From: Escherichia coli
Lineage (GTDB): Bacteria; Pseudomonadota; Gammaproteobacteria; Enterobacterales; Enterobacteriaceae
DNA: 43,616 nt
Assembly: GCF_003334305.1 (NCBI RefSeq)
Contig: NZ_QOWS01000029.1
Strand: one strand, 5' to 3'
The notes beneath the pieces were generated by a model. It did no database searches, was not told the DNA's origin, and worked only from the letters and a program-made list of their open reading frames with translations. Of the stretch, positions 42,762 through 42,998 are shown piece by piece (within the stretch, counting starts at the first letter, position 1; the number at the start of each line of letters is the position of its first letter). A program made the translations under genes and the position numbers.

Positions 42762-42998
42762 TTATGTCATTGTGGGTTGATGTTGGGCTTTCATAAAAAA
42801 AACATCTTTTTTTGAACTAGCATTAATTATATTTACTTTATATATTAAAATATTTTCTCCATCTGGAAATATTTTAGCCACACAATATAAAGCAGCTGAA
42901 TCCGAATTACTTAAAAATATATTATCATCACCCATAACTCCAGCCATTAAATGACTGGAGACTAAAGCAAGGAAATAACAACATTGTATTGCCTTCAT
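42762..42998 (-). CDS. Candidate immunity protein for the upstream Rhs C-terminal toxin domain (hypothetical)
   Basis: Small AT-rich ORF (MKAIQCCYFLALVSSHLMAG...) starting within 2 nt of the Rhs stop codon on the same strand. This is the typical toxin/immunity gene arrangement. No recognisable family. Confidence 0.45.
   Translation of the reverse strand: MKAIQCCYFLALVSSHLMAGVMGDDNIFLSNSDSAALYCVAKIFPDGENILIYKVNIINASSKKDVFFMKAQHQPTMT

Follow-up and report, generated by a model that had tools for sequence, protein, structure and literature searches.

The first ORF downstream of an Rhs gene shown to suppress the toxicity of the associated C-terminal tip was dsORF-a1 (yibA) of RhsA from Escherichia coli K-12 (Vlazny & Hill 1995, as summarized in PMC7259588). 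For the Tox-JAB-2 (DUF4329) toxins, the immunity family that has been assigned is Imm-NTF2-2 (PF15631), and Imm65, the partner of Tox-JAB-1, was described as a lipoprotein, which is exceptional among immunity proteins (Zhang et al. 2012, PMC3482391). The "RNase" label given to DUF4329 in later papers goes back to a speculation and not to an assay. In the literature we found no protection or binding experiment for any DUF4329 toxin-partner pair. The locus described here is Rhs locus 11 of E. coli, located between yiiX and priA (Jackson et al. 2009, PMC2935791), and an in-silico study of EHEC EDL933 has treated the 57-aa z5489 as an immunity protein under the name "RhsBI" (PMC7216683).

The window, by which we mean the whole stretch of 43,616 nucleotides that was analyzed, is a piece of the E. 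coli chromosome. Its gene order is metF-metL-metB-metJ-yiiX, followed by a degenerate IS1, a low-GC segment on the minus strand, and an Rhs gene. An earlier note, made from the letters alone, had put forward a 78-codon ORF that starts directly after the stop codon of the Rhs gene as a candidate immunity gene for the Rhs toxin. Here we report that this feature is ordinary and already annotated: it is an allele of a named Rhs immunity gene that a frameshift has truncated. The ORF probably corresponds to the 5' two-thirds of a frameshifted dsORF-f3, which would be the immunity gene cognate to the yiiX-priA/rpmE Rhs element.

RESULTS AND DISCUSSION

Organization of the Locus

The features of the locus are collected in Table 1. 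The stop codon of the Rhs gene (TAA, 43002..43000) and the start codon of dsORF-f3 (ATG, 42998..42996) are separated by a single nucleotide, and the placement of the Shine-Dalgarno sequence within the end of the Rhs gene fits with translational coupling. From 42700 to 43450, which takes in the ORF and the toxin tip of the Rhs gene, the GC content is 0.28-0.35, compared with about 0.5 in the flanks. When the 381-nt segment was shuffled (n = 2000), an ATG-initiated ORF of at least 78 codons on the same strand was obtained in 0.1% of the shuffles. The earlier note was therefore accurate about the ORF immediately after the Rhs stop codon on the same strand, its coupling, the AT-richness shared with the toxin tip, and the hydrophobic N-terminus; its remaining observation, a GC-rich inverted repeat at the 3' end of the ORF, did not survive.

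Table 1. Features of the dsORF-f3 locus in window coordinates
Feature	Position	Strand	Remarks
Degenerate IS1-family element	41858..42621	plus	frameshifted transposase; 54 nt beyond the dsORF-f3 stop; from terminal repeats and PGAP
dsORF-f3, full ancestral span	42676..42998	minus	323 nt here, 324 nt (107 aa + stop) when intact; frameshifted pseudogene in RefSeq
Invariant GGGG codons, intact frame	42748..42759	minus	C-rich center of the repeat described in the earlier note
ORF of the earlier note	42762..42998	minus	78 codons + TAA; 5' part of dsORF-f3 in the T8 frame
Frameshift site	42795..42802	minus	T8 in the gene, A8 on the plus strand; T9 in the intact allele
Codons 1-19 (MKAIQCCYFLALVSSHLMA)	42942..42998	minus	predicted Sec-type signal peptide, less likely a signal-anchor
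3' end of the Rhs gene	43000..43616	minus	continues past the window edge
Shine-Dalgarno sequence AAGGGAG	43007..43013	minus	within the last Rhs codons, 8 nt upstream of the dsORF-f3 ATG
DUF4329 / Tox-JAB-2 toxin domain	43042..43404	minus	with E, HTH, and S..D motif

The arms of the supposed repeat are 7 nt long and AT-rich (ATGACAT, 42741-42747; ATGTCAT, 42764-42770), and they enclose a C-rich spacer of 16 nt that has no self-complementarity. Nine comparable inverted repeats, this one included, are found within 900 bp. The predicted RNA fold over the repeat was no better than that of shuffled sequences (z = -0.28), the arms were unused in the minimum-energy fold, the repeat has no T-tract, and a scan for intrinsic terminators returned no site there. 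A hairpin or structural element at the 3' end was rejected on these grounds. In the intact frame of dsORF-f3 the stretch ATGACAT-AAT-GGGGGGCGGGGGA-ATGTCAT encodes N-D-I-M-G-G-G-G-M-S-Y, and the repeat is a coincidence inside coding sequence.

The toxin domain matches Pfam DUF4329 with an E value of 1.2e-15, has the invariant residues E38, H82-T-H84, S108, and D111, and resembles the JAB/MPN (deaminase-like) folds. The core/tip junction DPLGL is located at about 43444-43458, where the GC content drops. The full Rhs gene is 4185 nt in length (1394 aa) and is intact in strain A7. At its N-terminus (locus L009, 8160-9509, minus strand), a weak PAAR-like motif (E 0.21) precedes DUF6531 (E 3.8e-17). 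At this locus (L009) the Rhs gene has neither vgrG nor a chaperone gene beside it, rpmE is directly next, and the order yiiX-IS1-dsORF-Rhs-rpmE is the same as in annotated genomes. The IS1 copy was found at the same position in all 10 E. coli genomes inspected, and it is therefore an old, fixed insertion that bounds the Rhs element. The yiiX gene (41162-41769, plus strand) is also frameshifted, into ORFs of 149 and 82 aa (608 nt versus 609), and PGAP flags this same lesion in strain A7 and in O104:H4 2009EL-2050.

dsORF-f3 Is Frameshifted in the Window

The name given to the feature by RefSeq/PGAP is "RHS element protein dsORF-f3", and it is annotated as a frameshifted pseudogene in strains IAI1, O104:H4, and A7. 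The intact 324-nt coding sequence, WP_001323627.1 (107 aa), is present in strains 120899 and CFSAN061769. By direct comparison, the sole difference between the window and the intact allele is a run of T8 in place of T9; in the tail frame that follows, the two DNA sequences do not differ. Positions 37600-43616 of the window are identical to strain A7 at 6017 of 6017 bases. The protein from the T9 allele reads ...SSKKDVFFYESPTSTHNDIMGGGGMSYAYEYDVKYNICHLRKKSRMR, and that from the T8 allele reads ...SSKKDVFFMKAQHQPTMT and then stops. The frame changes after residue 68, the stop is encountered ten codons later at 78 aa, and the window thus has no uninterrupted frame of 107 codons, although the out-of-frame tail YESPTSTHNDIMGGGGMSYAYEYDVKYNICHLRKKSRMR remains open. 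The last ten residues of the window ORF, MKAQHQPTMT, have no counterpart in any orthologue.

Other frameshift alleles were also found. The O111 allele has T7 at the same run, and in O157:H7 the adjacent A7 run (42807-42813) is shortened to A6. All of the observed frameshifts are carried by the A7 and T8/T9 runs. In the mRNA these two runs (window 42795-42813) are complementary, with GAUG between them, and form a weak hairpin (z = -1.5).

On the evidence of the orthologous sequences, the T9 frame is ancestral and under selection, because the orthologues align to the C-terminus of the T9 frame and the invariant residues from G81 onward lie past the break. In the alignment of the close family (A1, n = 8), the invariant columns are M1, L29, G81-84, Y87, Y89, C98, and M106; the eight from G81 onward are all beyond the frameshift of the window. 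The conserved C-terminal motif of the relatives, GGGG..Y.Y..C, is accordingly lost from the window ORF, and the 78-aa product is without 8 of the 10 invariant residues and 2 of the 4 predicted β-strands. In the window, one T has gone from the T9 run to give T8, the frame changes after residue 68, and the 78-aa product is without strands 3 and 4 and without nearly all of the invariant residues. Since these elements are missing, the 78-aa product is, from the model and the conservation, most likely non-functional.

Homologues of dsORF-f3 Follow DUF4329 Toxins in Many Phyla

Relatives of the Rhs tip were located on contigs from Enterobacter, a JGI metagenome, Salmonella, and Scandinavium, where the tips are 72, 71, 53, and 45% identical, respectively, to that of the window; the related toxin tips overall are 72, 71, 53, 50, 47, and 45% identical. 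Each of these four tips is followed directly by an ORF, with lengths of 98-109 aa across the related loci. The enteric genera in which an orthologue of dsORF-f3 comes after a DUF4329 tip are Enterobacter, Salmonella, Scandinavium, Rahnella, and Superficieibacter. The partner ORFs align with the T9 frame to the last residue, and toxin and partner diverge together (toxins 72, 71, and 53%; partners 46, 50, and 30%). Used as the query of an exhaustive HMMER search, the 107-aa form retrieved the same small set and no other sequence.

The toxin profile was scanned against one genome per species, which yielded 32 loci in Proteobacteria, Acidobacteriota, Planctomycetota, Myxococcota, and Spirochaetota. 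In most of these loci the next ORF has, in this order, a helix, Y.v.v...v.F, RG(G), a strand, and Y.R, with some tandem duplications. By hhalign, the enteric clade matches 14 partners from other phyla with a probability of 97.8% (E 9e-13, 79 columns). A homologue is located directly downstream of the DUF4329 toxin in all 29 of the listed non-E. coli loci. Of these loci, 23 came out of the genome scan and 4 out of look-ups, and the other two are P0077 and P0086. Both Rhs and PAAR architectures occur among the toxins, the stop and start codons often overlap, and the offsets between them are -3 to +17 nt in most of the homologous loci. The family is thus same-stranded with and downstream of the toxin and travels and diverges with it, and the gene in the window has the low GC content of its tip, as is characteristic of polymorphic-toxin immunity genes.

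The view that the dsORF-f3 family comprises cognate immunity proteins of Tox-JAB-2 toxins is supported by position and co-divergence, since its members are consistently found just after Tox-JAB-2 domains, which is the genomic signature of cognate immunity. The proposal of the earlier note is therefore borne out for the family: the position is the canonical one, and the same pair recurs in several enterobacterial genera and, at the profile level, in many phyla. It fails for the copy in the window, where the 78-codon ORF is not the gene itself but what a frameshift has left of a 107-aa protein, without 8 of the 10 invariant residues and the last two of the four strands. No NCBIfam family was found for the 78-aa form, the 107-aa form, or the distant relatives, no Pfam match at E ≤ 0.1 was found among 22 family members (8 + 14), and a PDB sequence search with the immunity and toxin profiles found nothing. 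An immunity family for DUF4329/Tox-JAB-2 toxins that extends far beyond E. coli would therefore be unrecorded in Pfam, NCBIfam, and PDB.

Several individual loci deserve mention. In Scandinavium sp. (locus L005, 2535-4001), an orphan DUF4329 tip has an Imm-NTF2-2 gene before it and a dsORF-f3-like ORF after it. The gene caller starts this ORF 22 codons late, which removes the hydrophobic N-terminus; from the start that overlaps as ATGA, the ORF is 98 aa. Tandem-duplicated immunity domains of 170-194 aa follow Tox-JAB-2 in L021-L023 and L026-L028, which are from MAGs of Acidobacteriota, Myxococcota, Planctomycetota, and Holophagales. The toxin genes of L022, L023, L027, and L028 have an N-terminal PAAR domain; in L021 and L026 the toxin ORF is short and has no PAAR. 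In these tandem-duplicated partners the signal peptide is variable and depends on the start codon chosen. In the "Lachnospiraceae bacterium" MAG contig SFGN01000258.1 (L013, 152-920), an Rhs tip 100% identical to that of E. coli is found with an intact T9 dsORF-f3, and this contig is most likely E. coli DNA that was mis-binned into a Firmicutes MAG.

Predicted Fold and Export of the Intact Protein

The N-terminus of dsORF-f3 consists of K2 and then 21 uncharged residues (3-23), with a best 10-residue KD value of 2.1 by a heuristic calculation. The same heuristic finds the features of a Sec type I signal peptide, namely a positive n-region, a hydrophobic h-region, and small residues at -3 and -1, with candidate cleavage sites between LMA and G and between VMG and D. 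No lipobox is present in the N-terminus. The strong Shine-Dalgarno sequence and the coupling favor M1 over the internal methionines as the start. A positive and then hydrophobic N-terminus is common to all nine enteric homologues, in line with the earlier note, although the sequence of the segment has diverged; a property that is kept while the sequence drifts is typical of signal peptides, and we read the segment as a probable one. A pair of cysteines (C39/C98 in E. coli) is found in 5 of the 9 enteric members and is absent from those of the Salmonella-like, Scandinavium, Rahnella, and Superficieibacter loci.

The AF2 model of the 107-aa protein is of moderate confidence (pLDDT 70, pTM 0.58, from a shallow alignment of 8 sequences). 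It has an N-terminal helix (4-12), a low-confidence linker, a helix (31-43), and four strands (53-60, 63-70, 85-92, and 97-105). The intact protein would begin with a Sec-type signal peptide and continue with a single helix and a sheet of four strands, and the model suggests an α+β fold of the cystatin/PepSY/NTF2-like type.

From these N-terminal properties, it is likely that the enteric dsORF-f3 protein is exported to the periplasm. In the wider family, the partners of Rhs-type toxins mostly have a hydrophobic segment. The partners of PAAR-fused toxins in L019, L022, L023, and L027 lack it, as do some Rhs-linked partners (Duganella, Burkholderia, and Zophobihabitans), and an internal ATG in L021 and L026 would yield a signal-less form. 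The earlier note had suggested that the N-terminus could hint at where the toxin acts, and this suggestion is weakened by the signal-less members beside PAAR-fused toxins. Conserved cysteines of the toxin were considered as a marker of the periplasm and were rejected; they are found in the enteric clade and Acidovorax only and are uncorrelated with the signal peptides. Given export of the immunity protein, we regard action of the toxin in the periplasm as possible but rather doubtful.

dsORF-f3 Is Frameshifted in Roughly Half of the Genomes with the Element

A megablast search of the segment against complete E. coli genomes found it in about 2170 of 5426. Among 2167 genomes, exact matches of 90/91 nt were obtained to the T9 allele in 801 and to the T8 allele in at least 580. 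In an even sample of 59 genomes, the match length was 426 nt (in-frame) in 31, 425 nt in 26, and 424 nt in 2. A frameshifted dsORF-f3 is thus present in roughly half of the E. coli genomes that have the element, often beside an intact Rhs ORF, and there is one copy of dsORF-f3 per genome. The out-of-frame tail is open and identical in all of the frameshift alleles sampled.

The integrity of the Rhs gene was counted only in genomes that were inspected individually. In 6 of 7 such genomes with a frameshifted dsORF-f3, the Rhs ORF is intact (A7, O104:H4 2009EL-2050, JNEC-KY203, O111 2013C-4081, and the O157 strains 116 and DEC4E), and in IAI1 it is also broken. Of two T9 genomes, 120899 and CFSAN061769, one has an intact Rhs gene and one has an internal stop. 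The PGAP product names ("rhsC" versus "RHS element core protein") were tried as a proxy for Rhs integrity in the 59-genome sample and were rejected, since the intact 1394-aa CDS of A7 bears the name "RHS element core protein". This name is used for pseudogenes (IAI1, 120899) as well as for that intact CDS; the loci with such naming are L046 9901-14085, L001 9379-13562, and L006 6234-10418.

The simplest reading of these alleles is that, with selection relaxed, the gene has decayed recently and repeatedly at mutational hot spots. The toxin would be caged in the Rhs shell, and immunity would matter only when kin deliver the toxin. An intact Tox-JAB-2 Rhs gene beside a broken sole immunity gene, in lineages that include O104:H4 and O157:H7 and where the intact protein looks exported, raises the testable question of where Tox-JAB-2 toxins act and when immunity is dispensable.

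Alternative Explanations

Three other accounts of the window ORF were weighed. It is highly improbable that the 78-aa product is in itself a complete and functional immunity protein, as the earlier note had assumed. The ORF has a good Shine-Dalgarno sequence and is tightly coupled to the Rhs stop, it is longer than expected by chance, and the exact T8 allele is present in at least 580 complete genomes. Against this, its MKAQHQPTMT end is peculiar to it, PGAP treats the gene as a pseudogene, and the invariant residues and strands that it lacks are those of the conserved C-terminus. That dsORF-f3 is not an immunity gene at all, and is instead a chance ORF or an unrelated gene that travels with the Rhs tip, might be considered because no relative turned up in Pfam, NCBIfam, or the PDB. 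However, homologues are placed directly after DUF4329 toxins at 29 non-E. coli loci in several phyla and in both Rhs and PAAR architectures, and such placement is what defines polymorphic-toxin immunity genes at the genomic level; we consider this account close to untenable.

The third account is that the T8 allele still yields the full-length immunity protein, or switches, through -1 ribosomal slippage, transcriptional slippage on the T8 run, or phase variation by heritable changes in homopolymer length. A slippery heptamer is present in the right frame (GUU UUU UUU A), and if the ribosome slipped by -1 on U UUU UUU, with UAU GAA AGC coming next, exactly the wild-type ...DVFFYESP... would be restored; the junction peptide expected of the full-length product is DVFFYESPTSTHNDIM. 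At least three different frameshift alleles are known, all in the A7/T9 runs, the sampled frameshift alleles all share one identical, uninterrupted tail frame, the gene is single copy, and the toxin ORF is intact in most of the inspected genomes (6/7) where dsORF-f3 is frameshifted. However, no stimulatory structure was found in the 90 nt downstream of the T8 run (z = +0.52), and no SD-like stimulator is visible upstream of it. In any gene on which selection is relaxed, homopolymers are hot spots of mutation, the intact 117-nt tail is weak evidence when E. coli lineages are very close to one another, the T7 allele could not be rescued by the same -1 slip, and IAI1 has lost both genes, as decay predicts. 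We therefore judge slippage or switching to be improbable and retain recurrent decay of dsORF-f3 as the explanation of the frameshifts.

A broader hypothesis would combine export with decay. The enteric Tox-JAB-2 Rhs toxins might be envelope-acting JAB metallopeptidases that are neutralized in the periplasm by a secreted cystatin/PepSY-like inhibitor, the gene for which decays or switches while the caged toxin stays intact. Under this hypothesis dsORF-f3 would be free to decay or switch, because immunity would be needed only against incoming toxin. We hold this combination to be unlikely as a whole. If true, an envelope metallopeptidase would contrast with the "RNase" label of the literature, and decay or switching of the gene beside an intact caged toxin is the pattern in O104:H4, O157:H7, and the lineage of the window.

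Comparison with Known Systems

Like Imm-NTF2-2, dsORF-f3 is a small (about 105 aa) α+β protein that adjoins DUF4329 toxins, and the one example of Imm-NTF2-2 that we examined (Scandinavium, L005 2535-2852; n = 1) has a hydrophobic N-terminus too. Both may resemble NTF2-like or cystatin-like proteins at the level of the fold. The motifs differ, with GGGG..Y.Y..C and RG..Y.R in the dsORF-f3 family and Y,W in Imm-NTF2-2. The hhalign comparisons of A5 and A4 with P0087, a bona fide Imm-NTF2-2, gave probabilities of 0.8 and 0.2%, respectively, with a single sequence as the target, and a homologue search made to extend Imm-NTF2-2 returned the query alone. On these comparisons the dsORF-f3 family is not detectably Imm-NTF2-2. 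Cystatin, PepSY, and FTP-propeptide domains have no sequence similarity to dsORF-f3, and the likeness to them comes from the model with a pLDDT of 70. dsORF-f3 may act as an inhibitor of a JAB metallopeptidase.

Imm65 is likewise an exported immunity protein (export being predicted for dsORF-f3) that is paired with a polymorphic toxin of the JAB fold. By description it belongs to another family, which occurs in Bacteroidetes, and it is anchored through a lipobox, which dsORF-f3 does not have. With dsORF-a1, candidate dsORF-f3 shares the nomenclature and the logic of a downstream ORF that neutralizes an Rhs C-terminal tip. The RhsA tip is not DUF4329, and dsORF-a1 is a 280-aa HEAT-repeat protein without a signal peptide. 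We had considered dsORF-a1/YibA as a tested precedent for DUF4329 and dropped it when BLAST found the RhsA tip to be unrelated.

The 57-aa call in the EHEC study corresponds to a start at M22 on a frameshifted allele (window 42762-42935, minus strand), and the 57-aa calls that were retrieved bear the T8 residues. Judged from these sequences, z5489 is probably not a complete protein, and published in-silico work has treated truncated calls such as this one as complete. The closest known relative remains WP_001323627.1, which is the same gene at the same locus and is identical to the window over residues 1-68; the window differs from it in having T8 rather than T9, in a product that ends at 78 aa, and in being called a pseudogene by PGAP.
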